This document shows, one piece after another, positions 30,017-61,900 of a DNA stretch of 64,000 bases. Made by a program: the position numbers and the translations under genes. Every line of letters starts with the position of its first letter. The first letter of the stretch is position 1. Origin of the DNA: Patescibacteria group bacterium (GTDB taxonomy: Bacteria > Patescibacteriota > Minisyncoccia > Phycocordibacterales > Phycocordibacteraceae); assembly GCA_040390125.1 (NCBI GenBank), contig JAZJYZ010000001.1, positions 163,698 to 227,697 on the forward strand. Direction: 5' to 3'. Under the pieces are notes generated by a model, which had not been told where the DNA came from, made no database searches, and was given only the letters and a program-made list of their open reading frames with translations.

Positions 30017-30406
30017 GTGCATATGGCTGAAGAAACAACAACAAAAGCAAAAACGAAGCGTGTAACAAAAAAGAGCGTGGGTGCTGTGGCACCTGCAACT
30101 ACTTCGAAGTTGCGCCTTCGTGTGCGAGCCTATGATCACAAGGTCTTGGATGCTTCAGTGAAGCAGATTATCGACACCGCACTCCGTTTTGATGCGGAGG
30201 TTGTAGGTCCTATCCCGCTTCCAACTGACATCAAGAAGTTCACCGTGAACGCTTCGTCGTTCGTCTACAAAGATGCTCGTGAGCAGTTCGAGATTCGTAC
30301 ACATAAGCGAATTTTGGACATCGTAAACCCAACACCAAAAATCATTGATGCTTTGACGAACCTTTCGTTGCCATCAGGTGTCTCGGTTGATGTAAGGATG
30401 ATGTAG
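30017..30406 (+). CDS. rpsJ: 30S ribosomal protein S10 with a basic N-terminal extension
   Basis: [14 protein letters not shown]...FEIRTHKR S10 core. Confidence 0.93.
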
Positions 30407-30537
30407 TCGTTTGACGAGAATCGCAATCTGCTTTGTTGCAGGTTGCGGTGCTCTCTCGCCGTACGTAAGAGTACGGCTCGGTTTGCTCCTCGCCTGCGCC
30501 TCGCATCTCATCGATTCTCTCCAAACTCCAAATTAAA

Positions 30538-30566
30538 AACCGCCCGAAAGGGCGTTTTTTAATTTG
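30538..30566. terminator. Bidirectional rho-independent terminator aaaaaccgcccgaaagggcgtttttt
   Basis: GC-rich hairpin with A-run upstream and T-run downstream. Confidence 0.75.
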
Positions 30567-30597
30567 TGTTGCGTACAAGTTCTACGTTCCCCTGCTC

Positions 30598-30741
30598 TTA
30601 GGCTCTTTTATACCATTCTTTGGTAAGTTTATTGTATACATAATCGAATGGCATAGAAAAAGGATGAGGGTGGTGTTTAAAACCTGGACCAGTCGTTTCA
30701 TAACCACCTCGTCGTGAAATTAATTTTAGTCTCTCTTTCAT
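30598..30741 (-). CDS. Hypothetical 47-aa basic protein (MKERLKLISRRGGYETTGPGFKHHPHPFSMPFDYVYNKLTKEWYKRA), antisense to the S10 operon. The 61-aa track ORF starts inside the promoter, so the downstream ATG is preferred
   Basis: Consensus promoter immediately upstream and terminator immediately downstream on the minus strand. Confidence 0.3.
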   Translation of the reverse strand: MKERLKLISRRGGYETTGPGFKHHPHPFSMPFDYVYNKLTKEWYKRA

Positions 30742-30773
30742 AGATAAAATATAAGTTTTTAAGTGATACGTAA

Positions 30774-30802
30774 ATAATAGCATATTAGAAACCTTCTGTC
30801 AA
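30774..30802 (-). promoter_or_regulatory. Near-consensus sigma70-type promoter on the minus strand: TTGACA, 17-nt spacer, TATTAT
   Basis: -35 at 30797-30802 and -10 at 30774-30779 (read as the reverse complement); exact 17-nt spacer. Confidence 0.5.
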
Positions 30803-30906
30803 GTATTTCTATAGTGAGTTCAACAAGTAAGTGTACCACTCCAGACTTCTAAGGGGGGGCACCTTTGGTAAAATACCGAGGTTTCGTCGTGGTATTTTTA
30901 GGTTTC

Positions 30907-30935
30907 TTGCATCTTTTAGGTGCTTTGTGTATAGT
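30907..30935 (+). promoter_or_regulatory. Candidate promoter for the rplC operon: TTGCAT, 17-nt spacer, TATAGT
   Basis: Hexamers with an exact 17-nt spacer, about 120 nt upstream of rplC. Confidence 0.45.
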
Positions 30936-31014
30936 AGCTGAAACGCTACGTTTGCCTCCGAAACATCGAAAGGGTTGGACCCTTCGACAAGCTCAGGGTA
31001 AACCAATGGTATAT

Positions 31015-31047
31015 CGCACACTGCGAATACCGGTGTGCGTTTTTCTT
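31015..31047 (+). terminator. Leader hairpin cgcacac..gtgtgcg followed by TTTTTCTTT, 10 nt upstream of the rplC start; a candidate attenuator
   Basis: 7-bp GC-rich stem with a T-run; an alternative upstream hairpin cgaaaggg/cccttcg lies at 30967-30986. Confidence 0.45.
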
Positions 31048-31056
31048 TAAACAAAA

Positions 31057-31665
31057 ATGAAATTTCTTATCGGTACAAAACAGGGAATGACACAGGTCTT
31101 CAATTCAGCAGGTCACGCTGTGCCTGTTACCGTTATACATGCGCCAAAGGTTACAGTGACCCAAGTAAAGAACGTGGAGACTGATGGCTACAAGGCAGTG
31201 CAGGTAGGGTACGGTGAACAAAAGCAATCACGCATTGCAAAACCACAGCAACCTAAAGGAAATGTTCGTGGGCTTCGTGAGTTTCGTTTCGACGGAGCTG
31301 AGGCTCTTGAGGTCGGTGCCACATTTGATGTCACTGCTTTCTCAGAAGGTGAAAGCGTCGTTGTTTCAGGAATTTCAAAAGGAAAAGGTTTCCAGGGCGT
31401 CGTAAAGCGATACGGTTTCAAAGGAGGTCCTCGTACACATGGTCAGAAACATTCTGAAAGAGAGCGTGGTTCTTCAGGAGGAGGCCCAGGCCGAGCAGGT
31501 GGTCGCGTCGTGAAGGGTATGCGCATGGCAGGCCGAATGGGTTCTGACCGTGTGACTGTTCCAAATCTCGAGGTCATTCGAGTGGACAGTGTAAAAAATG
31601 AGATTTTTGTTCGTGGAGCAGTTCCAGGACGAAAGGGAACAGTAATTGAGATTCGTGGCAAATAA
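31057..31665 (+). CDS. rplC: 50S ribosomal protein L3
   Basis: 202-aa ORF reading as L3 (MKFLIGTKQGMTQVF... N-terminus, Gly/Arg-rich middle region). Confidence 0.95.
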   Translation: MKFLIGTKQGMTQVFNSAGHAVPVTVIHAPKVTVTQVKNVETDGYKAVQVGYGEQKQSRIAKPQQPKGNVRGLREFRFDGAEALEVGATFDVTAFSEGESVVVSGISKGKGFQGVVKRYGFKGGPRTHGQKHSERERGSSGGGPGRAGGRVVKGMRMAGRMGSDRVTVPNLEVIRVDSVKNEIFVRGAVPGRKGTVIEIRGK

Positions 31666-32800: not shown

Positions 32801-33664
32801 ATGTCTTCTACACGAAATTACAAAGCACGCACCGCATCTACTCGTCACATGAGTGTGATTCGTTACCGGGGTGTTGTGACGACCAGCAAGCCTCTAAAGT
32901 CTTTGACGAAGGGTAAGAAAAACCGTGCAGGCCGAAACTCTTTTGGTCGTATTACAACTCGCCACCAAGGAGGCGGACACAAACAGCAGGTGCGCATGGT
33001 TGATTTTATGTTCGCTAAAAAGAACATCTGGGGCAAGGTTGAGCACATTGAATACGATCCCACTCGCTCAGGTTTCATTGCTCGCATTGTAGACATAGAC
33101 GGAGAGCGCCGATACATACTTGCACCGAAGTCTTTGAAAGTTGACGATAAAGTCATCACTTCTGAAACTGCCCCAATCACTCCTGGAAATCGTCTTCCTT
33201 TGAAGAATATTCCAATTGGAACATTCATCTACAACATTGAGATTCATGCAAACGGGGGTGCGAAGATTGCTCGAAGTGCTGGCAATCATGCCGAGCTTAT
33301 TGCACTTGACGCTGGGTACGCTCAAATCAAGCTCCCTTCAACTGAAGTTCGCAAGGTGGTAGACACTGCATGGGCATCCATTGGCGAGGTTTCAAACGAT
33401 GCACATCATCTTGTCATCATTGGTAAAGCAGGTCGTTCTAGACACATGGGTATCCGCCCAACGGTACGTGGTACTGCTATGAACCCAGTTGACCATCCAC
33501 ACGGAGGAGGTGAAGGCCGTCAGGGTCGTGGACACAGAAGGCAACGCACTATGTGGGGTAAGCCATCAGGAAAGGGTCAAAAGACACGAACTCCAAAGAA
33601 ATACTCCAATCCGTTCATTGTTTCTCGTCGCCGTGTTGGAAAGAAGAGAACAAAGGGAGCGTAA
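32801..33664 (+). CDS. rplB: 50S ribosomal protein L2
   Basis: 287-aa ORF reading as L2 (Gly/His/Arg-rich C-terminal half ...GRNSFGRITTRHQGGGHKQ... and ...DHPHGGGEGRQGRGHRRQ...). Confidence 0.95.
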   Translation: MSSTRNYKARTASTRHMSVIRYRGVVTTSKPLKSLTKGKKNRAGRNSFGRITTRHQGGGHKQQVRMVDFMFAKKNIWGKVEHIEYDPTRSGFIARIVDIDGERRYILAPKSLKVDDKVITSETAPITPGNRLPLKNIPIGTFIYNIEIHANGGAKIARSAGNHAELIALDAGYAQIKLPSTEVRKVVDTAWASIGEVSNDAHHLVIIGKAGRSRHMGIRPTVRGTAMNPVDHPHGGGEGRQGRGHRRQRTMWGKPSGKGQKTRTPKKYSNPFIVSRRRVGKKRTKGA

Positions 33665-33673
33665 ATTTCAGAA

Positions 33674-33709
33674 TAAAAAATCCCCCGCCATATATGGCGG
33701 GGGATTTTT
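33674..33709. terminator. Strong palindromic terminator aaaaaatcccccgcca tatatggcgggggatttttta, right after rplB
   Basis: 12-bp GC-rich stem flanked by A/T runs. Confidence 0.7.
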
Positions 33710-33727
33710 AGTTGTACAATATAGGAC

Positions 33728-36700
33728 ATGAACGTTATTTCTCGAAGTGTCAATTTTTCGTTTCTTTTTTTCGGGATCTCTTTTGCTTTGGTAGCAGTGC
33801 TTTTTGTTGCATTGCCAACGCCTGTTCATGCTGGTCCTCAAACTGGTGGTTGCGGAGAATCTTGGGGATATGAGTATACCGTAGTAGTAAACCCGTATAC
33901 GCCATTTACTCCTGCTCATGATGCCTGGCACTCACTTCACGGCGGTGATAGCTACACGGTACAGAGTGCATATCAAATAGCTAGCGTTGGTGATGAGGGA
34001 TGTCCTGTTAGTGATCCACCATACATAGCCCCTACTGTTGGCGTTGTCGTAGTTCCTTTAACTATTACTGCGGGTGAATCTTCCCAGCTTGCGTGGGGGG
34101 CCGAGAATACACTTTCTTGTACGGGCACGAACTTTTCAACTGGCTCGGCCACTCAAGGTGTAGTCACTGTTTCTCCAACAGTGACTACAACCTATTCTGT
34201 TAGTTGTACTGACGGTGCTACTACTGTATCGTCGAGTGCTACGCTATTTGTTAATCCACCACCTGTACCCACAGCATCTCTAAGCGCAAGTACAAATTCT
34301 ATTGTCTCAGGGAGCCCCTCAACGCTCACGTGGAATTCCACGAACGCCACTTCGTGTGCAGGTACTAATTTTTCAACCGGCGGAGCAACGGCAGGATCTG
34401 TGAGCGTTTCGCCAGTGAGTAGCACTTCATACCTTGTATCTTGCACAGGGCTTAGTGGATCGGCTTCAGCTTCTGTTACTGTCACCGTAACGCCTCCAGT
34501 CCTCCAAGCAAGTTGTTCAGTTTCATCCACGTCTGCCATTGTTGGGCAAGCAGTCACGTGGACTGCCGTACCTTCCGGTGGTACCGGCTCCTACACGTAT
34601 TCCTGGAGTGGAAGTGATAGTCTTTCAGGTACAGGAAGTTCAGTTTCGAAATCATACTCATCGACGGGTACCAAAACTGGCTCTGTTAGTGTCACCTCTG
34701 GATCGCAAACAACTTCGGTGACTTGCTCGAACAGTGTGTCGATAAGTAATGCTCCAGTTGCTGTTTCTTGTTCAGTATCTCCAACCTCTGCCACCGTCGG
34801 TAGCTCTGCTACGTGGAGCGCAAGTGCCTCAGGTGGCACCGGCTCCTACACGTATTCGTGGACTGGTACTGACAGTCTTTCCGGCACGGGTGCGTCTGTA
34901 TCCAAAACATATTCCACGACGGGAACAAAAACTGGATCGGTAACGGCAACCTCCGGCGGACAATCGGCTACAGCAAATTGTTCAAACAGTGTAGTGGTGA
35001 GTAACACTCCAGTAACTGGTTCTTGTTCGGTGTCGCCATCTTCTCAAACAACAGGCAGTGCCGTCACGTGGAGCGCAAGTGCTTCCGGTGGCACCGGCTC
35101 GTACAGCTATGTATGGAGTGGCACCGATAGTCTTTCAGGCAGTGCCAGTTCCGTTTCGAAGACGTATTCAAGCACTGGCACGAAGAGTGGCTCAGTAATA
35201 ATTACTTCAGGGGGAAATTCTACGAGCGTGACCTGTGCAAACTCGGTATCAGTAAGTTATCCGGCAATTACCGGCTCGTGCTCTGTGTCGCCTACAACTA
35301 TCACCGCAGGTGGTTCTGCAACGTGGAGTGCAAGTGCTTCTGGTGGCTCCGGTTCCTACACGTATTCTTGGAGTGGTACGGACAGCCTTTCTGGCACAGG
35401 CACATCAGTCACAAAAACCTACTCCAGTTCGGGTGCGAAGACTGCCTCGATTACTATTACTTCAGGCGGAAGTTCCGAGGTAATTAACTGCTCTAATGCA
35501 CTCACGGTAGGTAATGTGCCGGTAGGTGGTTCCTGCTCTGTAACGCCAACCAGTATGTATGCCGGTAGTTCTGCAACATGGACTGCTGTACCTTCAGGTG
35601 GCACCGGCTCGTACACGTATGTATGGAGTGGCACTGACAGTCTTTCAGGTACTGCTAGCTCGGTTTCAAAAACGTATTCAGGAAGCGGTATTAAGACGGG
35701 TTCCGTCGCAATCACTTCAGGAGGAAATTCTGCTACTGTGACGTGTTCGAATTCTGTTGCAGTGAGTGTGACGTTGTCGGATCTCATTACTGGTGCTGTG
35801 TCTCCAACTTCTGCCGTTGCAGGTGTTGCACAAATGTTTTCTGCAACAATCACCAACATTGGGCAGTCTGGGACGAATGGTGCTTTCACGAGTTTATTCC
35901 AGCGAGCAACATCTGCAGGTGGTGCAAATACGACCGATATTGGCACCGATGGCTCTCCGAGTGTGTCTGCAAATGGTACAGACGTGGCTGGGCTTTCGTA
36001 TGCGTTTCCCTCAGGAGGTATTTGGTACTTACGTGTTTGGGCCGACAAAAGCGGAACGGCGGATTCGGGGGCCATTAATGAGTCGAGTGAAAGCAATAAC
36101 TCAGGTGCATGGACTGCAATCTCTGTGTCGAGCCCAACATTGAGTGCGTACTGTAATGTCGCACCTGCCTCGGGATATTCTGGAGATACATTTACGTGGA
36201 CGGCATACCCATCTGGTGGCACCGGCTCCTACACCTATTCGTGGACTGGCAGTGACGGACTCTCCGGCACCACGCAAAGTGTTGCAAAATCATATTCGAC
36301 TTCTGGCACTAAGACTGGTTCCGTGACGGTGGTTTCTGGCGGGCAATCGGTAGGTGCCACATGTGCATCTGCAAATCTATCGAATGTTCCAAGTGCGCTC
36401 ATAACCGCAACTCCAAATTCTATTATTCTTGGCAACACGTCTCGTCTTGACTGGACTTCTTCAAACGCATCTTCCTGTAACAGTTCTGCTTTCTCGACCG
36501 GCGGGGCACCATCGGGTTCCGTAACCGTTACCCCTTTAACTACAAAAACCTATGACCTGACCTGTACTGATGGCACACGAACAGGTGTCTCTAGCGCAAC
36601 GGTGACCGTCGTTCCTGTTGGACTCACGCTTTCAATCAATCCTTCAACGACAGTTCGTCAAGGGGATCCTGCAACAGTTAACTGGTCAGTGAGTGGAAGT

Positions 36701-36871
36701 CCTGATTCTTGTTCAATTCAGGGTCCTGGTCTCTCATCAACCGCTCTCTCTGGGTCACGGGTAGTGACTATTACTGCGGAGAGCACTTACGTCCTCACGT
36801 GTACCTCAGGAGGTTCTTCGATAACCACTTCAGTCACTATAGGCCTGACCCCCCACTTTGAAGAGTTTTAA
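33728..36871 (+). CDS. Giant 1047-aa secreted Ser/Thr/Gly-rich tandem-repeat protein. It has a signal peptide, 6 copies of an 85-aa Cys-bracketed module (CSVSPTS..TW.A.ASGGTGSYTYSW.GTDSLSGTG.SVSKTYS.TGTKTGSV...C.NSV.VSN) and 4 copies of a second roughly 70-aa module (L.W.S.NA.SC....FSTGGA..GSV.V.P....Y.L.CT). It is inserted between rplB and rpsS
   Basis: Uninterrupted 3144-nt ORF; about 255-bp nucleotide-level tandem repeats (ggtggcaccggctcctacacgtattcgtgg recurs at 34576, 34830, 35088, 35342, 35596, 36212); hydrophobic N-terminus ending ...PTPVHA. Confidence 0.8.
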   Translation: MNVISRSVNFSFLFFGISFALVAVLFVALPTPVHAGPQTGGCGESWGYEYTVVVNPYTPFTPAHDAWHSLHGGDSYTVQSAYQIASVGDEGCPVSDPPYIAPTVGVVVVPLTITAGESSQLAWGAENTLSCTGTNFSTGSATQGVVTVSPTVTTTYSVSCTDGATTVSSSATLFVNPPPVPTASLSASTNSIVSGSPSTLTWNSTNATSCAGTNFSTGGATAGSVSVSPVSSTSYLVSCTGLSGSASASVTVTVTPPVLQASCSVSSTSAIVGQAVTWTAVPSGGTGSYTYSWSGSDSLSGTGSSVSKSYSSTGTKTGSVSVTSGSQTTSVTCSNSVSISNAPVAVSCSVSPTSATVGSSATWSASASGGTGSYTYSWTGTDSLSGTGASVSKTYSTTGTKTGSVTATSGGQSATANCSNSVVVSNTPVTGSCSVSPSSQTTGSAVTWSASASGGTGSYSYVWSGTDSLSGSASSVSKTYSSTGTKSGSVIITSGGNSTSVTCANSVSVSYPAITGSCSVSPTTITAGGSATWSASASGGSGSYTYSWSGTDSLSGTGTSVTKTYSSSGAKTASITITSGGSSEVINCSNALTVGNVPVGGSCSVTPTSMYAGSSATWTAVPSGGTGSYTYVWSGTDSLSGTASSVSKTYSGSGIKTGSVAITSGGNSATVTCSNSVAVSVTLSDLITGAVSPTSAVAGVAQMFSATITNIGQSGTNGAFTSLFQRATSAGGANTTDIGTDGSPSVSANGTDVAGLSYAFPSGGIWYLRVWADKSGTADSGAINESSESNNSGAWTAISVSSPTLSAYCNVAPASGYSGDTFTWTAYPSGGTGSYTYSWTGSDGLSGTTQSVAKSYSTSGTKTGSVTVVSGGQSVGATCASANLSNVPSALITATPNSIILGNTSRLDWTSSNASSCNSSAFSTGGAPSGSVTVTPLTTKTYDLTCTDGTRTGVSSATVTVVPVGLTLSINPSTTVRQGDPATVNWSVSGSPDSCSIQGPGLSSTALSGSRVVTITAESTYVLTCTSGGSSITTSVTIGLTPHFEEF

Positions 36872-36896
36872 TTTAGCCGTTTAGTGCTATTGGACC

Positions 36897-36926
36897 CTTT
36901 GTGCAACCTCCGGAGGTTGCACAAAG
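36897..36926. repeat. REP-like perfect palindrome ctttgtgcaacctcc|ggaggttgcacaaag (left flank of the transposase gene)
   Basis: The exact palindrome is shared with 37648-37689. Confidence 0.65.
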
Positions 36927-36945
36927 AGTGTGGTAGCCTAAATTG

Positions 36946-37638
36946 ATGCCTAAAGCATTACCAAAGTCGCGAGAAGGAATTGCTCCGGGGGAGTATTATC
37001 ATATTGTTAATCGTGGCGCTCATCGACAGACGATCTTTAAAGAAAAAAGCGACTGGCGCCGATTTCTTTTTAATGTGTTGTTTCTTCAATCTCCACATCA
37101 ATTTAAAAACATACATCGGATTACGGAAAGCTTTCTTCCAGATATTGGCTTTGCTGTCCCTAACGAAGATATCGAGGCTATCATAGAGAGTCGTTTTGTA
37201 GAAGTGGTTTGTTTTTGTCTCATGTCAAACCATTTTCACTTACTGGTCAAAGAAACTACTGAAGGCGGAATCGCACGCTATATGCAGCGTGTCTCTGACG
37301 GATACACAAAATATTACAATGTTAAATATGAAGCTACTGGGCATGTATTTCAGGGTCCATACAAAGCGGTGCATGTAAAAACAGACTCTCAGCTTCTCTA
37401 CACATCCGCCTATATTCATAGAAATCCTCGTGACATACGAGAGTGGTCAGGGAAGGAGTTTGAATACCCGTGGTCGTCACTCCAAGATTTTACTGACGCA
37501 AATCGATGGGGAGGACTCATAGTGCCCGAGATTGTTACGGGTCAGTTTTCCGTCACACCTAAAAGTAATTATGCTGATTTTGTTAAAACAACAACCGCCA
37601 AACTTTTAGCTGAGGAGCTTGAAGGCATCATTCTATAA
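36946..37638 (+). CDS. IS200-like / REP-associated tyrosine (Y1, HuH) transposase
   Basis: YHIVNRG..., HuH motif CLMSNHFHLLVKE, catalytic-Tyr region YTSAYIHRNP; 230 aa. Confidence 0.75.
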   Translation: MPKALPKSREGIAPGEYYHIVNRGAHRQTIFKEKSDWRRFLFNVLFLQSPHQFKNIHRITESFLPDIGFAVPNEDIEAIIESRFVEVVCFCLMSNHFHLLVKETTEGGIARYMQRVSDGYTKYYNVKYEATGHVFQGPYKAVHVKTDSQLLYTSAYIHRNPRDIREWSGKEFEYPWSSLQDFTDANRWGGLIVPEIVTGQFSVTPKSNYADFVKTTTAKLLAEELEGIIL

Positions 37639-37647
37639 ATTTCCTAC

Positions 37648-37689
37648 AACGCCATTTGTGCAACCTCCGGAGGTTGCACAAATGGCGTT
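37648..37689. repeat. REP-like perfect 42-nt palindrome aacgccatttgtgcaacctcc|ggaggttgcacaaatggcgtt (right flank)
   Basis: Perfect 21-bp arms; the core is identical to 36897-36926. Confidence 0.65.
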
Positions 37690-37781
37690 GACAGGAGGCG
37701 GGTGATTGGGATAGTATGCCCAAAGCTCGTGAGGGCGCATTTTTCTTAGTGCGTACCTGTTTGGGTAATACATACAACACA

Positions 37782-38141
37782 ATGGCTCGCTCACTTAAAA
37801 AAGGTCCCTATGTTGCACACAAGCTTCTAAAGAAGATTGATGGCAAGAAGCCTGCAACGACAGCCCCTATAAAGACATGGGCACGTGCATCTGAAATCAG
37901 CCCTGAAATGGTTGGCTTTGTTTTTCTTGTTCATAACGGTAAGGATTTTCCAGAAGTATTTGTTACAGAGGAAATGGTAGGACACCGTCTTGGTGAATTT
38001 TCGGCGACAACGAAATTCACTCGTCACGGAGGTAAGATGCAGAAAGAACTTGAGCAGAAGAAGAAAGAGTCTGAAATTGCAGCAGCACAAGCAGCCAAGG
38101 CTCCAGCAGACGGAAAAACTAAAGCTCCGGCAAAAAAGTAA
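37782..38141 (+). CDS. rpsS: 30S ribosomal protein S19 with a lysine/alanine-rich C-terminal extension
   Basis: [19 protein letters not shown]...; start at ATG 37782 within the longer track ORF. Confidence 0.9.
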
Positions 38142-41638: not shown

Positions 41639-42169
41639 ATGAAAGGTATTACTTTTATAGGAATGTCAGGAAGTGGTAAATCAAGCGTAGGCGCAAGATT
41701 GGCAATGCAGATTGGATGGAAGTTTGTTGATCTTGATAAACTGATTTTGGAAAAACAATCTGCTACTCATCACGAAATAATGCAAAGGTTTGGTGAGGAA
41801 GGGCTTAAAGCTCTTGAGGAGCAGTACACACTAGAACTAGATTTTGCTAATACAGTTTTTGCACCTGGGGGGAGCTTAGTATATTCACAGCTCGCAATGG
41901 AAAAAGCGAAAGATGAATCTACGCTTATTTATCTTCGGGTTCCACCAAGGATCATTGAGAGTAGGTTAGGTGATCGCCTGCACCGAAATGGCATCGTTGG
42001 CCTTGAGGAGAAAGGCCTTGCTGGAGTTATGGCGGAACGCATTCCGCTCTATGAAGGCTATGCGGACTATGTGTTTGATTCAGAAATGCAGAGTGTTCAA
42101 GAGATGGCAGAAAAAATTATTACTACACTGCGAAGTCGTGGTTTAGATTTTCCCTATGCGGTTTCATAG
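41639..42169 (+). CDS. aroK: Shikimate kinase
   Basis: P-loop GMSGSGKSSVG; about 176 aa. Confidence 0.8.
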   Translation: MKGITFIGMSGSGKSSVGARLAMQIGWKFVDLDKLILEKQSATHHEIMQRFGEEGLKALEEQYTLELDFANTVFAPGGSLVYSQLAMEKAKDESTLIYLRVPPRIIESRLGDRLHRNGIVGLEEKGLAGVMAERIPLYEGYADYVFDSEMQSVQEMAEKIITTLRSRGLDFPYAVS

Positions 42170-43466
42170 CACTAACAAGCATTCAAAAGGCTTTTCTTTT
42201 TCTCAGGCAATTCTTGCAGGTCTTGCTCCTGACGGAGGGTTGTTCATGCCGGATCGCTGGCCATCTTTACCAAAACGTTTTTTTTTAGATTTAAAAGAGT
42301 CAACGTTCGCTGACAGTGCATTCTCAATAGCTAAGCATTTTGTGCCTCAAATCTCAGACAGAGACCTTCGTCGCCTAACAAAAGATGCCTTCAATTTTCC
42401 TGTACCCCTTGTTCCCCTTGGGGATGGGGTATTTTTGTTAGAACTTTTTCATGGTCCAACCATGGCTTTTAAAGACTTCGGTGCACGTTTTTTGTCTCGT
42501 ATTTCAAGTTTTTTCCTCCGCCAATCAAAAAAGAAGATGACGATTATTGTTGCCACGTCGGGTGACACTGGCTCGGCAGTTGCAAGCGGGTTTTTCAAGG
42601 TTCCTCATGTGCGAATATTTATTTTGTATCCAAGTGGAAAGGTAAGTCCACTACAAGAAAAACAGCTAACGACGTACGGAGGGAATATTACCGCTATCGA
42701 AGTGAAGGGCACATTCGATGACTGCCAAAAGCTTGCAAAACAAGCACTTGCTGACAGAGAGCTTGTGGAAGCCCTCAACCTCTCTTCTGCAAATTCAATT
42801 AATTTCGGACGATTGTTACCGCAGTCGTTTTATTATTTTTGGGCATGGAAGCAATTGCAAGAGAAAGGAATTTACAAAGATCCTGTATTCGTCGTGCCGA
42901 GCGGAAATTTTGGTAATGGGTTTGCTGGTTTAATGGCAAAACGAATGGGACTCCCTGTCTCGAAGTTTGTTTTTGCAACAAATGCGAATGCAATTGTGCC
43001 TAGTTACCTAAAGACAGGGAAATTTCTAGCTCAAAAATCAAAAAATACTATTTCAAACGCAATGGACGTGGGCAATCCGAGTAACTTTGCTCGTATTCTA
43101 GCTCTATATGACGGGAAGAGAGTGAAAATGAAAGAGGATATATGGAGCGAGAGTGTATCTGATGGGGTGACAAAAAAAACTATCCGTCGAGTTTTTGAAG
43201 AGTATGGGTACACGCTTGACCCACATACAGCAGTTGGCGTTGCAGCTGCATGGCGATTTCGAAAAGAAACAAAAAATGAAAATCCGATCGTAGTTCTCTC
43301 AACGGCACATCCGGCAAAATTTCGTGAAGTTGTGGAACCTGTCATCGGGAAGAAAATCACGCTGCCGTTGCAATTACGTGCTCCAATGAAAAAGAAAAAA
43401 CACTCACACCTGATTCCTGCTTCGTACGGCATCCTCAAGAAATTTTTATTGACTCACGAAGATTGA
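42156..43466 (+). CDS. thrC: Threonine synthase
   Basis: N-terminal ...LAGLAPDGGLFMP... and PLP-lysine region FHGPTMAFKDFG. Confidence 0.85.
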   Translation: MRFHSTNKHSKGFSFSQAILAGLAPDGGLFMPDRWPSLPKRFFLDLKESTFADSAFSIAKHFVPQISDRDLRRLTKDAFNFPVPLVPLGDGVFLLELFHGPTMAFKDFGARFLSRISSFFLRQSKKKMTIIVATSGDTGSAVASGFFKVPHVRIFILYPSGKVSPLQEKQLTTYGGNITAIEVKGTFDDCQKLAKQALADRELVEALNLSSANSINFGRLLPQSFYYFWAWKQLQEKGIYKDPVFVVPSGNFGNGFAGLMAKRMGLPVSKFVFATNANAIVPSYLKTGKFLAQKSKNTISNAMDVGNPSNFARILALYDGKRVKMKEDIWSESVSDGVTKKTIRRVFEEYGYTLDPHTAVGVAAAWRFRKETKNENPIVVLSTAHPAKFREVVEPVIGKKITLPLQLRAPMKKKKHSHLIPASYGILKKFLLTHED

Positions 43467-43502
43467 CACGTACTTTCCCACTGGTAGAGTTGCATTGCAT
43501 AT

Positions 43503-43688
43503 ATGCCAAAAGACCCAGAATCAGCACCCTTGAATCGAACATCTGTGAAGCATGTGCCTAGGTTTGGGAAAGGTTTTAGACTGATTCGAGAAATAGATGT
43601 GCCTGTGGGCGGGGGACAGGGAACAGAGAGAGTTTTTACTTTTATGGAGTTTCCGGATGGTCGTCGTCAGTGGTTAGGACGTCGTTAA
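43503..43688 (+). CDS. Hypothetical 61-aa ORF
   Basis: ORF only. Confidence 0.15.
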   Translation: MPKDPESAPLNRTSVKHVPRFGKGFRLIREIDVPVGGGQGTERVFTFMEFPDGRRQWLGRR

Positions 43689-43718
43689 TATTTTCTGGGT
43701 TTATTTTTCGTAGTTTAC

Positions 43719-44003
43719 ATGTTTGAGCGAGGCGTGAGATCTGTGAAAGGCTCCAGTAGACCATGGGTCGCACTTGGGATGGTGGCGGCGCTTTTTTCTC
43801 CGGATAAATATCCTGATCCTGTACAGCGAGGTGTAGATGCCGGCTTTCGTTTGGCGGAAAGTGGCGATTGCAGGGGATCCATAAGAGATGAGTATATTGA
43901 GGTGCTTGCACAAGAGCATCGTCCTCTGCGTTACGTCCTGCCGTTCGTCAAGGCACGCAATGATACCTGTGCACGAGCGGAGTCCATGGTTGATTTTCGC
44001 TAG
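43719..44003 (+). CDS. Hypothetical 94-aa ORF
   Basis: ORF only; GC-rich. Confidence 0.2.
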   Translation: MFERGVRSVKGSSRPWVALGMVAALFSPDKYPDPVQRGVDAGFRLAESGDCRGSIRDEYIEVLAQEHRPLRYVLPFVKARNDTCARAESMVDFR

Positions 44004-44184
44004 TTTGACCTCTTAGTTCGTTTCTGCTATCCTAGCAATAGCTTTTCGAAGCGCTTTTTCTTTACCCTTCAACTTCGTTCAGGGTGAAAGGCCTCTTCCC
44101 GAAAGGGTGAGGTACGGAAAAGGGCTCTAAAAGGCGAATACCCTTCATCTCAGCACAGGCTGAATGAATACGGTTCCCTAAAAA

Positions 44185-44454
44185 ATGGCTAAAAAGTCAC
44201 AATTGGCTCGCAATTCCAAGCGTATCAAAACGGTCGCTCGTTTTGCTGTTAAACGTGCTGCGTTAAAGAAGGCGGGAGATTGGGAAGGTCTACAGAAGCT
44301 TCCTAAGAACGCTTCACCAATTCGTGTGAAGAATCGCTGTGCAGTTACTGGTCGTGGTCAGGGCTATATGCGTCATTTCGGACTTTCTCGTATCCAGTTT
44401 CGTGAGATGGCACGCCGTGGCGAGATCCCAGGCGTTAAGAAGTCTTCTTGGTAA
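44185..44454 (+). CDS. rpsN: 30S ribosomal protein S14 (long, non-zinc-ribbon type)
   Basis: [17 protein letters not shown]...[27 protein letters not shown]. Confidence 0.9.
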
Positions 44455-52382: not shown

Positions 52383-55265
52383 ATGCCAGGATTTAATCCC
52401 AACAAAGGAATCGATACAAAAGCGGCAAAGCTCTCACCTGAGCATCAGCTTACGAAGCTTCGTGAGACTGCACGCTCAGGTGGTGGTGGCAGGGGTCAGC
52501 GAGGAGGTCCGGCATTGCCCGTTGAAACCTCTGTCCTTCCGGCTGTTTCGCAAGCTCTTGATGGCACCGAACAGGAAGAGAAGAGTGGCATCATTCTTGA
52601 ACTCACACCAGACTCAAATGACAAGGACATGGAAGAGCTTTTGGGGATTCTCCACGCTAGAGGATTCAAAGCGGTGATGAAAGAGCTCGACCGCATAGAT
52701 AATCCGCACCTTGAAGACGATTTTCATCGTTTACTTGTTCAATACCGAACGGCAGGGCACTCGATTCCGGGTCTTGATCCTAACGACCCTCTAGCAAAGG
52801 CACTCGATTTTGTACTTTTGGATGTTGCAGTTCCTGAGGCAGCACCGGGAAAACCAGGAGGCTCTTTGAAAGATATCTGTACGCAAATGGAGCAGTTTTA
52901 TTTGAGTATGATTCCGTTTGTTGCCCTGCCGGATACTGTGTTTTTGAAGGATTGGCAAAAACGACGGAGAATTCATCTCCAACATTTCACATTGGAAATC
53001 GCTGTTTCGCACACAAAAGAAGAGGCAGTCTTTTACCTATCAGTGCCTCGTGCGAAACGGGAGACTTTCGAAAAGCAGATTTTTGCGATGTTTCCTCGTG
53101 CGCGTGTCGTTGAAAAGAAGGATGACTACAATATCTTTAACCAGTTTGGTGCAACTGTGGGTGCTTCTGCGTACTATCATCGTCCGCCACCAATCCCCTT
53201 GAAGACCTCTGAGGAGTTTACCCACGATCCTTTGAACGTCACCCTAGCTGCACTATCGAAAATTACAAAAGAAGGGGAGGGAGCTGCAATTCAGATTGCG
53301 GTTGCTCCTGCGGGCGATTATCACTCGAAGCGTATCCGCTATGTGCTCGATGAGCTCAATAAAGGAAAGAGCGGGGCGAACGATGTGTTCCGAAAGAATA
53401 TGTATATGGAGCATTATTCGCCGATGCGTCGATTTTTCCAGAACCTCGGGAAAGGTTTCAAACTATTTCTTGAAAGTTCCGAGGAAAAAAAGAAGGACGA
53501 TAAGCATATTGATGCCTTTGCGACAGAGGCAGTGTCCAAAAAACTGAAGAGCGTTATTGTGGGTGTGAATTTACGCATCGTTGCTTCGGCTCGAACAAAA
53601 GAACGGGCTCATGCGATTCTCACTGAGATCGAAAATACGTTCGGGCAGTACGAAGATGCAAAGGCAAACCGACTTCGCTTTAAGCATTTAAAAAAGAAAG
53701 AACTCCGAGATTTCCTACGTGCATTTATCTTTCGAACGTTCGATCGCCAAGCACACGAGGGCTTTTTCTATCAGCTTTGGCTTGAGTGGACACGCAAAGC
53801 TGCGCCAACGCCTTTAATGCATAAGATTCCTTTGATGCCTATGAACTTGGCAGAACTTTCAACCATTTTTCACCTCACCATTGCTGGTGGTACGGCGTCT
53901 CGTGAAGCGAAGACTGCAAGCGCTAAGCTTGCACCTGCACCACCAGGGCTTCCAGACAAAGGAATTGTCATTGGTAATAATCGCTACTCGAATATTGCAA
54001 CACCCATTCATTTCACGCCGGACGACAGGCTCCGTCACATGTACACCATCGGACAGACCGGTACCGGTAAAACAAACTTCTTGAAGAATATGATTATTCA
54101 AGACATCGAAAATGGGGAAGGAGTGTGCTTCATCGACCCGCACGGCGTGGATGTATTGGAGATACTCTCACGCATTCCGAAAGAACGTTATGACGATCTC
54201 ATTTACTTCGACCCGGCCTATACCGCACGGCCCATGGGCCTCAACATGCTTGAGTATGATCCACGGTTTCCTGAGCAAAAGACATTCGTGGTGGATGAGA
54301 TGTTTAAGATTTTCAAAAAATTGTACGGCGATGTGCCGGAAGCTTTTGGTCCTATCTTCGAGCAGTACTTCCGTAATGCCACCATGCTTGTGCTTGAGGA
54401 CCCTGACACTGGTTCCACGTTGATGGATATTTCACGAGTACTCGCTGACGATGAATTCCGTGCGTTGAAACTTTCTCGTTGCAGAAATCCCGTCGTGACG
54501 CATTTCTGGGAAGACATTGCGGAAAATGTGCGTGGCGAAGGAGACTTGCGTAACGTCGTGCCGTACATCACGTCAAAGTTCGACATCTTCATCGCAAACG
54601 AAATTATGCGTCCAATCATAGGTCAGCAACGTTCCGCCTTCAATTTCAAGGACATCATGGACAATAAGAAGATACTTTTAGTGAACCTCTCCAAGGGTCG
54701 ACTTGGTGATGTGAATGCCAACCTCATTGGTCTTGTGATTGTCGGCAAGATTATGATGACCGCACTTGCACGCACGGAATATCTACATTTGAATCCGCCG
54801 AACTTCTATCTATATATCGACGAATTCCAAAATATCACCACCAACACTATTTCAACGATTCTCTCTGAAGCACGTAAATTCCGTCTCTCTATGACCATGG
54901 CACACCAGTATGTCGCACAGCTTGGCAAAGAAATCAAAGAGGCTGTTTTCGGTAACGTGGGCACCATGGCGGTGTTCCGTGTTGGGCCAGACGATGCTGA
55001 ATATATTTCAAAACAATTTCAGCCAACATTTGAAGTCACTGATTTCCTTAAAATCGATAATTACCATGCATACTTGAAGCTTCTTGCAGGAGGAAAGCCA
55101 GCACCACCGTTTAGTATAGAAACTATTCCATTCCAGCCGGGCGATTTCCTTAACATTGATGCTCTGAAGCAGATTTCATATCAGCGCTATGGACGAGCAC
55201 GAGAAGCGGTTGAAGCTGATATCCGTCAGAAATACGACCAGATGCGGGAAAACCAGAAAGACTAG
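52383..55265 (+). CDS. 960-aa protein. The C-terminal half is a VirD4/TraD/TrwB-like type IV coupling-protein P-loop ATPase; the N-terminal ~450 aa has no recognisable domain
   Basis: Walker A GQTGTGKTN followed by FIDPHG, Walker B YLYIDEFQNI, and an SEARKFRLSMTMAHQ TraD/VirD4-type motif. Confidence 0.7.
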   Translation: MPGFNPNKGIDTKAAKLSPEHQLTKLRETARSGGGGRGQRGGPALPVETSVLPAVSQALDGTEQEEKSGIILELTPDSNDKDMEELLGILHARGFKAVMKELDRIDNPHLEDDFHRLLVQYRTAGHSIPGLDPNDPLAKALDFVLLDVAVPEAAPGKPGGSLKDICTQMEQFYLSMIPFVALPDTVFLKDWQKRRRIHLQHFTLEIAVSHTKEEAVFYLSVPRAKRETFEKQIFAMFPRARVVEKKDDYNIFNQFGATVGASAYYHRPPPIPLKTSEEFTHDPLNVTLAALSKITKEGEGAAIQIAVAPAGDYHSKRIRYVLDELNKGKSGANDVFRKNMYMEHYSPMRRFFQNLGKGFKLFLESSEEKKKDDKHIDAFATEAVSKKLKSVIVGVNLRIVASARTKERAHAILTEIENTFGQYEDAKANRLRFKHLKKKELRDFLRAFIFRTFDRQAHEGFFYQLWLEWTRKAAPTPLMHKIPLMPMNLAELSTIFHLTIAGGTASREAKTASAKLAPAPPGLPDKGIVIGNNRYSNIATPIHFTPDDRLRHMYTIGQTGTGKTNFLKNMIIQDIENGEGVCFIDPHGVDVLEILSRIPKERYDDLIYFDPAYTARPMGLNMLEYDPRFPEQKTFVVDEMFKIFKKLYGDVPEAFGPIFEQYFRNATMLVLEDPDTGSTLMDISRVLADDEFRALKLSRCRNPVVTHFWEDIAENVRGEGDLRNVVPYITSKFDIFIANEIMRPIIGQQRSAFNFKDIMDNKKILLVNLSKGRLGDVNANLIGLVIVGKIMMTALARTEYLHLNPPNFYLYIDEFQNITTNTISTILSEARKFRLSMTMAHQYVAQLGKEIKEAVFGNVGTMAVFRVGPDDAEYISKQFQPTFEVTDFLKIDNYHAYLKLLAGGKPAPPFSIETIPFQPGDFLNIDALKQISYQRYGRAREAVEADIRQKYDQMRENQKD

Positions 55266-61457: not shown

Positions 61458-61499
61458 CCACAAATACAAAAGCCCGCCTAAGCGGGTTTGTATTTGTGG
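61458..61499 (-). terminator. Long palindromic hairpin ccacaaatacaaa-agcccgc-ctaa-gcgggtt-tgtatttgtgg overlapping the tmRNA 3' end; presumed ssrA terminator
   Basis: About 19-bp inverted repeat seen directly. Confidence 0.55.
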
Positions 61500-61900
61500 A
61501 GGTGGGGAGAGTCGAACTCCCGTACGAAGAGGGTCTCCGAAATGTTTCTACAAGACATAGTTCGTTTCAAGATTTAAGACAGGTGGGTAGAGAACGAACA
61601 AAATGACACCTATCCGAGCTCTCCAATTTCATTCTTTTCTACGAGCAGTAGAGAAGAATATAGCCTGATGTTATGGCACTAGAAACTTCGTATCAGACGT
61701 CAGAAGTCTAGCGCCGTCCCGACCGAAGTGAGGACGGAAGAGGTAGCTTACGCTAATGCCAACGCGAAGTCAGCACGAGTGAAGTAGCCCTTTATAGTAG
61801 AAGCGTTTGCACGTTTCAGTGCTCGAGGTTTAAGGTGTTCTCCAGCATTCACCGTCTTGCGCACAACAGAGGAAATTCTCCGTCGAAACCAGTCACCCCC
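61497..61900 (-). ncRNA. ssrA: tmRNA (SsrA), about 404 nt. The 5' end is GGGGGUGACUGGUUUCGACGG; the 3' tRNA-like end is GGGAGUUCGACUCUCCCCACCUCCA with CCA not encoded. The predicted tag reading frame ends ...ADFALALA*
   Basis: The 5' end matches the conserved tmRNA start GGGGCUGAUUCUGGAUUCGACGGG; the T-arm UUCGA and acceptor pairing GGGGGUG/CACCUCC include a G3:U pair; an alanine-rich tag ORF stop lies at 61748; smpB is adjacent. Confidence 0.8.

Follow-up and report, generated by a model that had tools for sequence, protein, structure and literature searches.

The S10 operon has the canonical gene order rpsJ-rplC-rplD-rplW-rplB-rpsS-rplV-rpsC-rplP-rpmC-rpsQ, and rplB and rpsS are among the universal ribosomal markers used in phylogenies of the candidate phyla radiation (CPR; Patescibacteria). 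Variable surface genes located between conserved genes are familiar from S-layer cassettes, capsule loci, and O-antigen loci. Surface proteins with multiple PKD or Ig-like domains are common among CPR, and a role in cell-cell contact or attachment has been proposed for them; giant ones with PKD and fibronectin domains have been described in the CPR predator Vampirococcus (PMC8080830). Other CPR have been reported to carry hypervariable surface genes (PMC6851277). RAYT-like domesticated Y1 transposases, in turn, form an established class (PMC5581495, PMC6006769); within the TnpA-Y1 proteins, class 2 is marked by the motif Y-x-x-x-N-P and IS200 class 1 by Y-x-x-x-Q, and subclass 2.1 has been reported without nearby repetitive extragenic palindromic (REP) sequences (PMC6006769). 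Here, we describe a locus at which both kinds of gene occur between rplB and rpsS. It lies in a 64,000-nucleotide (nt) stretch of a Patescibacteria group bacterium (assembly GCA_040390125.1, contig JAZJYZ010000001.1, positions 163,698 to 227,697), referred to as the window, and consists of a gene for a 1047-amino-acid (aa) predicted surface protein followed by a Y1/HUH transposase-like gene (here referred to as Y1).

Taken together, our analysis indicates that the large gene probably encodes a surface fibril that binds a host or substrate and that it resides in an ancestral, recombination-prone island between two operons. The anatomy of the locus, its synteny, its terminator, predicted promoter, and palindromes, and the mosaicism of the large protein are all shown by the sequences. 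A preliminary description of this DNA, made from the sequence, had drawn attention to a 3.1-kb open reading frame (ORF) between rplB and rpsS; this ORF is intact, and its product is identical to the NCBI Patescibacteria protein V4449_01140, which also comes from a metagenome-assembled genome (MAG). That description had overlooked a CARDB-like domain within the protein, the Y1 gene with its palindromes, and the rpsS promoter. In the literature searched, we found nothing on an insertion between rplB and rpsS, on a CPR sorting signal, or on a transposase within a ribosomal operon. The fixed rplB/rpsS address of both elements, the juxtaposition of a palindrome with the rpsS promoter, the two orientations of Y1, and a widespread C-terminal tail on the large protein appear to be new. 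The features of the locus are as follows.

32801-33664, plus strand: rplB (ribosomal protein L2), the final gene of the upstream unit; Pfam Ribosomal_L2_N, E = 4e-28, and Ribosomal_L2_C, E = 2.5e-47
33674-33711, plus strand: intrinsic terminator of the bidirectional type, with an A-run, a 15-bp GC-rich stem, a 4-nt loop, and a T-run
33713-33720, plus strand: candidate extended -10 element TGTACAAT, 7 nt 5' of the ATG of the large gene
33728-36871, plus strand: gene for the 1047-aa secreted, predicted surface protein; intact ORF
36894-36929, no strand: left palindrome; core at 36899-36924, TTGTGCAACCTCCGGAGGTTGCACAA
36943-37638, plus strand: Y1/HUH transposase-like gene; 231 aa from a TTG start, 230 aa from the ATG at 36946
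37647-37690, no strand: right palindrome, with 22-nt perfect arms; core at 37656-37681, identical to the left core
37688-37717, plus strand: predicted sigma-70-type promoter of the rpsS unit; TTGACA, a 16-18 nt spacer, and GATAGT/TAGTAT, matching 10 of 12 positions in a consensus scan
37718-37781, plus strand: conserved rpsS leader, with an AAGCTCG motif, a small hairpin, and a T-run
37782-38141, plus strand: rpsS (ribosomal protein S19), which opens the downstream unit; Pfam Ribosomal_S19, E = 1e-30; start placed by homology

As the preliminary description assumed, rplB and rpsS are normally adjacent: across 61 genomes from outside the CPR, retrieved with the same L2 query, the median gap between them is 5 nt (range, -21 to 126). 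The gene order of the canonical S10 operon is kept in the window. Unlike the canonical operon, the cluster shows breaks here, with terminators and new promoters downstream of rpsJ, rplB, and rplE, and the rplB-rpsS spacer amounts to 4.1 kb containing a terminator, two genes, and a promoter, so that the operon is not contiguous. The hairpin that follows rplB has a folding energy of -27.4 kcal/mol (z = -6.9 relative to shuffled sequences), in agreement with the strong terminator first reported before the large gene; a consensus terminator scan did not pick it up, but folding revealed it clearly. Hairpins with a T-run, differing in sequence, are found at the same place 3' of rplB in all five syntenic loci introduced below, and a hairpin also follows rplB in several more distant relatives. 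On the other side of the island, in nine aligned loci and four more, the rpsS promoter has an invariant TTGAC directly beside a palindrome, and all five syntenic loci combine the terminator after rplB with a promoter and leader of the same kind before rpsS. With a terminator 3' of one gene and a promoter 5' of the other, rplB therefore probably closes one transcription unit and rpsS opens another. Judging from these signals, the S10 cluster appears to be split at rplB/rpsS across the whole lineage. In the 10 next-closest CPR genomes, the rplB-rpsS gap measures 165-1093 nt and contains unrelated small ORFs and no Y1; in several of these genomes, too, a terminator-type hairpin lies 3' of rplB, and rpsS is preceded by a TTGAC-type promoter and a leader with a small hairpin.

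The rpsS leader itself has conserved columns in the aligned loci. Its AAGCTCG motif and its small hairpin followed by a T-run are present in the window and in loci L001, L081, L082, and L085, and similar leaders with a hairpin and T-run precede rpsS in the more distant L003, L005, L011, L013, and L014. In sequence, it looks like an attenuator or an autoregulatory leader of the kind used by ribosomal proteins. Searches of Rfam at gathering thresholds and at permissive E-values returned no family matching the hairpins or the rpsS leader.

Five other MAGs carry the arrangement rplB, one to three envelope genes, Y1, and rpsS, and together with the window they make up a clade of six loci. Their layouts are as follows.

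L001 (SCTS01000006.1; the closest GTDB representative, with rplB 94% identical): rplB - 1007 aa - Y1 - rpsS
L081: rplB - 1003 aa - Y1 - rpsS
L082: rplB - 219 aa - 921 aa - 1004 aa - Y1 - rpsS
L084: rplB - 471 aa - 320 aa - 873 aa - Y1 - rpsS
L085: rplB - 220 aa - 825 aa - 1078 aa - Y1 - rpsS

The accessory genes at 4526-5185 of L082 and 5327-5989 of L085 encode 219-220-aa proteins with a single transmembrane segment, and positions 3592-5997 of L084 encode a 471-aa polytopic membrane protein and a 320-aa transmembrane protein with a weak match to PD40 beta-propeller repeats. No firm Pfam assignment was obtained for the accessory island proteins of L082, L084, and L085. Finding this layout six times bears on the possibility that a chimeric join or a collapsed repeat was introduced between rplB and rpsS during assembly. 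The window does belong to a MAG, and genes rich in repeats are easily mis-assembled, but the six assemblies are independent, stem from different projects, and show the same gene order with intact ORFs, and the repeats of the large gene are too diverged to collapse. An artefact of this kind is scarcely conceivable.

Between the window and the five loci, the flanking genes rplB, rpsS, and rpsC are 92-96% identical (rpsS is 89% identical in L084) and Y1 is 57-92% identical, but the large protein is only 47-49% identical over aligned positions. At least four types of the large protein (the window type, the A-type, the B-type, and the L084-type) can be distinguished, which are 44-56% identical to each other; within the A-type, the large protein is 85-91% identical and rplB is 98-99% identical. 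The differences are distributed as whole domains. Among the syntenic proteins, only the A-type has a counterpart of the N-terminal head of the window protein (49-53% identity), while the B-type and the L084-type carry other heads; the window-type head is also present in three homologs without genomic context (P0052, P0057, and P0112). The CARDB domain of the window is 58-67% identical to that of the B-type and 26-30% identical to that of the A-type. A clean CARDB swap is evident in P0002 and P0003, which are mostly 63-97% identical to the A-type protein P0011 but only 35-47% identical to it across aa 607-730; this stretch of P0002 is 75-80% identical to the B-type protein P0015. Finally, the window protein has 5 + 1 PKD modules, whereas the A-type has about two, plus Cys-rich inserts, where the window has five. 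The variability among relatives suggested by the preliminary description is thus borne out by the low identity, the mosaic domains, and the differing PKD counts. By these alignments, the variation seems to reflect whole-domain exchange and module turnover among old diverged types and not slippage of DNA repeats. Like S-layer cassettes, capsule loci, and O-antigen loci, the island has discrete diverged types at one site, conserved flanks, and mosaic exchange. Unlike those loci, its flanks are ribosomal protein genes of the S10 cluster and it includes a Y1/HUH gene, and exchange through the flanks would be the corresponding process here.

A different history, built on the preliminary description, is that an adhesin gene recently entered a highly expressed S10 operon, rides on operon transcription, and varies in length through recombination between 255-bp repeats. 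The exact 255-nt spacing of the modules is real. As nucleotide repeats, they are weak: the tandem PKD modules share 56-72% amino acid identity and only 61-69% nucleotide identity, the longest exact run common to any two of them is <=20 nt, 47-56 of 85 third codon positions differ (near saturation), and Tandem Repeats Finder detected nothing in positions 33000-38000. The repeats are old and degenerate, and recent slippage or unequal crossing-over is therefore unlikely; they appear to be ancient duplications that would be poor substrates for homologous recombination. The same island in five other MAGs likewise argues against a recent acquisition by this genome, as does the composition of the gene. 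Its GC content at third codon positions is 39%, compared with 34-47% in neighboring genes, and a foreign origin by composition was rejected because this value is native. Nor is the island a single gene wedged into a running operon, given the strong terminator upstream, the second gene (Y1), and the separate promoter of rpsS. With the S10 cluster split in this way, it does not follow that the locus is highly expressed. With a codon adaptation of 0.59, the large gene falls among the ordinary genes of the window (0.52-0.64) and below the translation genes (0.68-0.77), and by this measure very high expression is not supported. Three observations do fit a recent insertion: the rplB-rpsS junction is normally closed in bacteria, the modules keep an exact 255-nt period while PKD copy number differs among relatives, and the island is missing from a relative, L171, in which rplB is 91% identical to that of the window. 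Weighing both sides, we regard this history as very unlikely. The comparison of the locus across genomes thus found the large gene at the same place in five MAGs, varied in type and PKD number, and found no large gene in L171.

The large protein has 644 homologs at E <= 1e-3 among 8000 candidates scored. The named homologs are mostly from Patescibacteria/Parcubacteria, and lower-ranked entries include some archaeal and other bacterial proteins. It is rich in Ser (22%), Thr (16%), and Gly (12%) and contains 22 Cys residues. Its domains, listed by position in the window, are as follows.

33728-33832, plus strand: signal peptide, aa 1-35, read from the sequence; basic n-region, 20-aa hydrophobic core, and predicted cleavage at PTPVHA/GP
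33833-34039, plus strand: N-terminal head, aa 36-104; small alpha/beta domain with conserved Cys42 and Cys92; AlphaFold model beta-alpha-beta, predicted local distance difference test score (pLDDT) 62-74
34040-34513, plus strand: two B-type two-Cys immunoglobulin (Ig)-like modules, aa 105-183 and 184-262
34514-35788, plus strand: five tandem 85-aa PKD modules, aa 263-687; 255 nt each; Pfam PKD_4
35789-36151, plus strand: CARDB-like domain, aa 688-808; beta-sandwich model, pLDDT about 48-89
36152-36406, plus strand: sixth PKD module, aa 809-893; pLDDT above 90
36407-36868, plus strand: two B-type Ig-like modules, aa 894-972 and 973-1047; pLDDT 84-96; ending in TPHFEEF-COOH

Most of what had first been read from the ORF is retained in this architecture. 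The signal peptide and the Ser/Thr/Gly-rich composition agree with a secreted protein, the six 85-aa modules with two Cys each fall at aa 263-687 (five) and aa 809-893 (one), and the four modules of a second two-Cys type, about 79 aa in length, lie toward both ends (aa 105-262 and 894-1047). The Ig-like or PKD-like character proposed for the modules was supported by Pfam PF18911 PKD_4, which matched four stretches with 60.6 bits (cut-off, 27; E = 1.5e-16), and by structure prediction, in which the PKD modules have a beta-sandwich fold of about 85 residues. The CARDB-like domain scored 20.7 bits with Pfam PF07705, just under the cut-off of 22.7, and the B-type paralog domains to which it is 58-67% identical pass that cut-off at 34.4 bits. 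The B-type two-Cys module (about 75-79 aa) had no Pfam match; in a library of 1.84 billion proteins, it matched 8943 cluster representatives, with up to 22 copies per protein.

Structure models of the protein had mean pLDDT values of 81-85 and were all beta-sandwich; the model of aa 688-1047 had a mean pLDDT of 85. With this C-terminal model, the top Foldseek matches were fragments of the Aureispira "grappling hook" protein GhpA (E = 1e-11), followed by a mastigoneme, DSCAM, MG domains of complement, and an archaeal S-layer protein, all of which are extracellular strings of Ig-like domains. A sequence search of the PDB with the large protein gave only marginal matches to Ig-like phage decoration proteins. 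The described Ig-like/PKD fibers, such as GhpA of the predatory Aureispira (PDB 9g8b and 9flx) and the archaeal S-layer protein (1l0q), are likewise secreted strings of beta-sandwiches, and PKD_4 is above its cut-off in the window protein. Compared with these solved structures, the window protein has only 10-18% sequence identity, a B-type module without a Pfam model, a P-x-F-x-E-F tail without a described counterpart, and no known anchor motif. By sequence and structural modeling, these results support the view that the gene encodes a secreted multidomain Ig-like/PKD protein with the architecture of a surface fibril or adhesin. Its surface location and binding function would follow by analogy, and the candidate adhesin of the preliminary description stands in this sense: the architecture fits, and binding is a likely function.

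The C-terminal tail (36848-36868 in the window) has the form [VIL]P-x-[FY]-x-E-[FILV]-COOH and follows the last Ig-like module in homologs P0002-P0119; a looser ending, [FYI]-x-[ED]-[FILV]-COOH, occurs in 52 of the 120 closest homologs. No transmembrane helix follows the tail, and no Pfam or NCBIfam model covers it. It may serve CPR surface proteins as a sorting or anchoring signal not described before. The final 78 aa were also tried as a profile of a specific C-terminal sorting domain, which was rejected because the profile recognizes the widespread B-type module, and only the last 5-6 residues are specific to the tail.

A protein of this kind could also be a major S-layer or envelope lattice coat whose variability, like that of S-layer cassette loci in other bacteria, stems from phage or predator pressure. 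The length of about 1000 aa, the Ser/Thr-rich composition (a possible sign of glycosylation), and the Ig-like strings suit a coat, as do the presence of one to two copies at a fixed locus in discrete diverged types and the membrane and beta-propeller-like proteins encoded by neighboring accessory genes. The codon adaptation, however, is average and not that of highly expressed genes, which weakly disfavors a major S-layer role; Pfam and NCBIfam detected no SLH or other known S-layer anchoring domain, and a coat that is essential would hardly be missing, with the rest of the island, from close relatives like L171. The layout of head, stalk, and conserved tail, together with the variability of the head, suits an adhesin better. 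We consider a coat function possible but unlikely and favor the reading of the protein as a binding fibril.

The second gene of the island belongs to the Y1_Tnp family, as judged by its score (Pfam PF01797, 39.1 bits; cut-off, 23), its HUH motif, and its Tyr motif. Members of the family are about 225-230 aa long, and 1484 were found in the database at E <= 1e-3. Among 24 Y1 orthologs, the HUH motif N96-H97-x-H99-L100 (NHFH) is invariant; within the AYIHRNP Tyr motif, no variation is seen at A156, Y157, I158, H159, and P162, and conservation reaches at least 90% at R160 and N161. The orthologs also share a long conserved C-terminal extension containing YPWSSLQD. Searched against the PDB, a family profile matched ISDra2 TnpA (2XM3) and E. 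coli TnpA-REP (4ER8), both weakly, and the single Y1 sequence gave only spurious matches. The Tyr motif has the class 2 form. The IS200/IS605 proteins of subclass 1.1, with about 150 aa, Y...Q, and multiple near-identical copies, differ from Y1, which has 231 aa, Y...NP, and a fixed locus. The NCBIfam model REP_Tyr_transpos (NF047646) gave 30.1 bits, below its cut-off of 80. On the strength of these motifs, and by the criteria of Quentin et al. (PMC6006769), Y1 appears to be a class 2, RAYT-like protein nearest to subclass 2.1, and not an IS200 TnpA; its motifs predict an intact catalytic site, and the protein may be active.

Y1 is bracketed by two identical, perfect 26-nt palindromes (TTGTGCAACCTCCGGAGGTTGCACAA), which occur nowhere else in the 64 kb; by chance, 0 copies would be expected. 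Folded as RNA, the left palindrome has an energy of -36.1 kcal/mol (z = -7.3) and the right one has an energy of -40.3 kcal/mol (z = -9.1); the right palindrome abuts the -35 region of rpsS. The core is TGTGCAACCTCCGGAGGTTGCACA in four genomes, TGTGCTAAACCCGGGTTTAGCACA in L081, and TGTGCAAGGCCCGGGCCTTGCACA in L084, such that the two palindromes match within a genome and differ between genomes, as in the cognate pairs that flank the transposase gene in a REPtron. Neither the rest of the 64-kb window, even with 3 mismatches, nor the flanks in relatives contained dispersed REP copies, and the window has one Y1 copy. The GTAG beside the left palindrome was considered as a REP guide tetranucleotide, but this reading was rejected because GTAG varies among loci and overlaps the TGnTAnnnT -10-like element that is conserved 6 nt before the Y1 start. 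With RAYT/TnpA-REP proteins, Y1 shares the NH[FY]H motif, FQ in place of the W motif, Y-[IV]-H-x-N-P, the SS tail, and a length of about 230 aa, along with matched flanking hairpins. Housekeeping-like vertical inheritance as a single-copy gene may be a further resemblance: one copy lies in the 64 kb and 13/13 orthologs share the locus, but in L081 a divergent allele has replaced the gene. Unlike them, it has no dispersed REPs in 64 kb, scores below the NCBIfam cut-off, and is fixed in the ribosomal cluster; unlike subclass 2.1, it has hairpins beside the gene.

In 13/13 loci inspected, the Y1 ortholog (at least 55% identity) is placed between rplB and rpsS, which points to vertical inheritance and not transposition. 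Six are co-oriented with the ribosomal genes. The other seven (L086, L087, L090, and L171-L174; 56-73% identical) are on the opposite strand, divergent from rpsS, in loci that have 0-2 small ORFs and no large protein. In all 13 loci, a palindrome directly abuts the -35 box GTTGAC of rpsS, and the loci span lineages in which rplB identity is as low as about 66%. In L171, Y1 is antisense, 72 nt from rplB, and no large gene is present; given the lack of the island in this relative, the origin of the envelope-gene island and of the Y1 inversion is placed in the ancestor of these six genomes. By its distribution, Y1 appears to be the oldest and most widely conserved occupant of the rplB/rpsS junction. 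The fixed address does not extend to the wider family: among 80 more distantly related Y1 homologs (at most 52% identity) in a metagenome scan, none had rplB or rpsS nearby, and the idea that all Patescibacteria relatives of Y1 target the ribosomal cluster was rejected for this reason. Several of the 80 are also flanked by matched palindromes.

One of the six co-oriented genes has been exchanged at its site. The Y1 of L081 (9099-9779) has 65-68% amino acid identity and about 40% third-position identity to those of L001, L082, and L085, whereas the flanking ribosomal genes have 98-100% protein identity and 70-91% third-position identity, and both palindromes changed together with the gene. Y1 and its hairpins thus behave as one replaceable module. 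Such replacement would fit a whole insert that was a current or recent IS200/IS605-type transposon with the surface gene as cargo, and Y1 plus the hairpins at both ends do form a unit of about 790 bp, the size of an IS200 element, with distant family members elsewhere that are also flanked by hairpins. The hairpins, however, enclose only Y1 and not the large gene, a second copy of Y1 or of the palindrome is absent from the 64 kb and from the flanks in relatives, and 13 orthologs share one site across rplB identities down to about 66%. The protein also has class 2 motifs (Y...NP, 230 aa, SS tail), not those of an IS200 TnpA (Y...Q, about 150 aa). A mobile insert of this type is highly improbable.

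A related proposal gives Y1 the leading part. Y1/HUH and the promoter-proximal palindrome would be a domesticated system for processing single-stranded DNA that acts at the rplB/rpsS junction, with the surface protein as its cargo; the system would direct the capture, inversion, or exchange of envelope cassettes through its hairpins, in the manner of an integron or shufflon, or would serve as a structural or regulatory partner of the rpsS promoter. The correlation between Y1 and the variability of the surface protein is positional only, and we consider this proposal quite unlikely.

Sequences upstream of the two inserted genes suggest that each has its own promoter. The element TGTACAAT-N7-ATG is found at the large gene in the window, L001, and L081, and its place is taken by TGTAGACT in L082 and L085 and by TGCTACACT in L084. 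Upstream of Y1, an extended -10-like element, TGGTAGCCT-N6-ATG (36930-36948 in the window), is kept in the syntenic loci. Extended -10-like elements 6-7 nt before both inserted genes suggest leaderless mRNAs, and for the large gene we infer that its own extended -10 probably drives transcription of an mRNA with little or no leader.

Combining these observations, we return to the reading of the locus as an ancestral island with a binding fibril. The protein would be a secreted, all-beta, beads-on-a-string molecule, with a signal peptide, a variable head, a stalk of Ig-like, PKD, and CARDB domains, and a conserved C-terminal module ending in P-x-F-E-E-F; the head would be distal and variable and the tail proximal and conserved. 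The ancestral gap would have held a domesticated RAYT-like Y1/HUH gene with one hairpin abutting the -35 of rpsS. In the ancestor of the clade, Y1 would have become co-oriented with the ribosomal genes, and one to three envelope genes would have settled between the rplB terminator and Y1. The surface protein would later have diversified as modules were gained or lost and as domains were exchanged between types of paralogs or alleles, and the near-invariant ribosomal genes on both sides may act as homology arms in cassette exchange. By analogy, its role is most likely adhesin-like binding of a host or substrate under diversifying pressure, with expression from its own promoter.

Several points weigh against this reading. 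Function is assigned by domain architecture and analogy, and the structural matches are generic Ig-like folds that include S-layer proteins, so the protein could be structural rather than adhesive. LPXTG, SLH, lipobox, and CTERM-type anchors were not detected in the protein by Pfam or NCBIfam. The identity of about 47% may reflect old coexisting types and not rapid evolution. The functions of Y1 and of the surface protein may have nothing to do with each other: the replacement of Y1 in L081 did not extend to the large protein, and relatives without Y1 also carry assorted genes in the rplB-rpsS gap. The putative promoters and leaderless starts are assigned from matches to consensus sequences.

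To our knowledge, host recognition in CPR/Patescibacteria is little understood beyond type IV pili. A hypervariable family with head, stalk, and tail at a fixed, easily assembled address is a candidate for strain typing, for correlation with host or habitat, and for studies of expression and binding. The function of RAYTs likewise remains, as far as we know, an open question, and a Y1 gene tied to one locus and one promoter in both orientations offers a concrete, testable setting for it. Annotation that relies on operon structure, and expression levels assumed from it, should also take the segmentation of the S10 operon in this lineage into account.

The ribosomal cluster of the window is interrupted at two further places. 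Within the 650-bp rpsJ-rplC gap (30406-31057) are a hairpin resembling a terminator (30535-30562) and a minus-strand ORF of 61 aa (30598-30783); in relatives, this gap also contains small unannotated ORFs (84 aa in L081 and 116 aa in L084). The interval between rplE and rpsN (41639-44454) holds genes for shikimate kinase (41639-42169) and threonine synthase (42156-43466), followed by ~700 bp without an assigned gene, with rpsN at 44185-44454. The shikimate kinase/threonine synthase insert is missing from the close relatives L081, L082, and L084 and is thus a second, genome-specific break of the ribosomal cluster. Elsewhere in the window, a tmRNA gene was identified on the minus strand at 61494-61900 (Rfam RF00023, 103.7 bits); ARAGORN reported no tRNA genes in the 64 kb and also did not report this tmRNA. 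The gene at 52383-55265 encodes a 960-aa protein with weak matches to TraG/TrwB-type coupling proteins and HerA-like ATPases, which may be a component of a type IV secretion or DNA translocation system.

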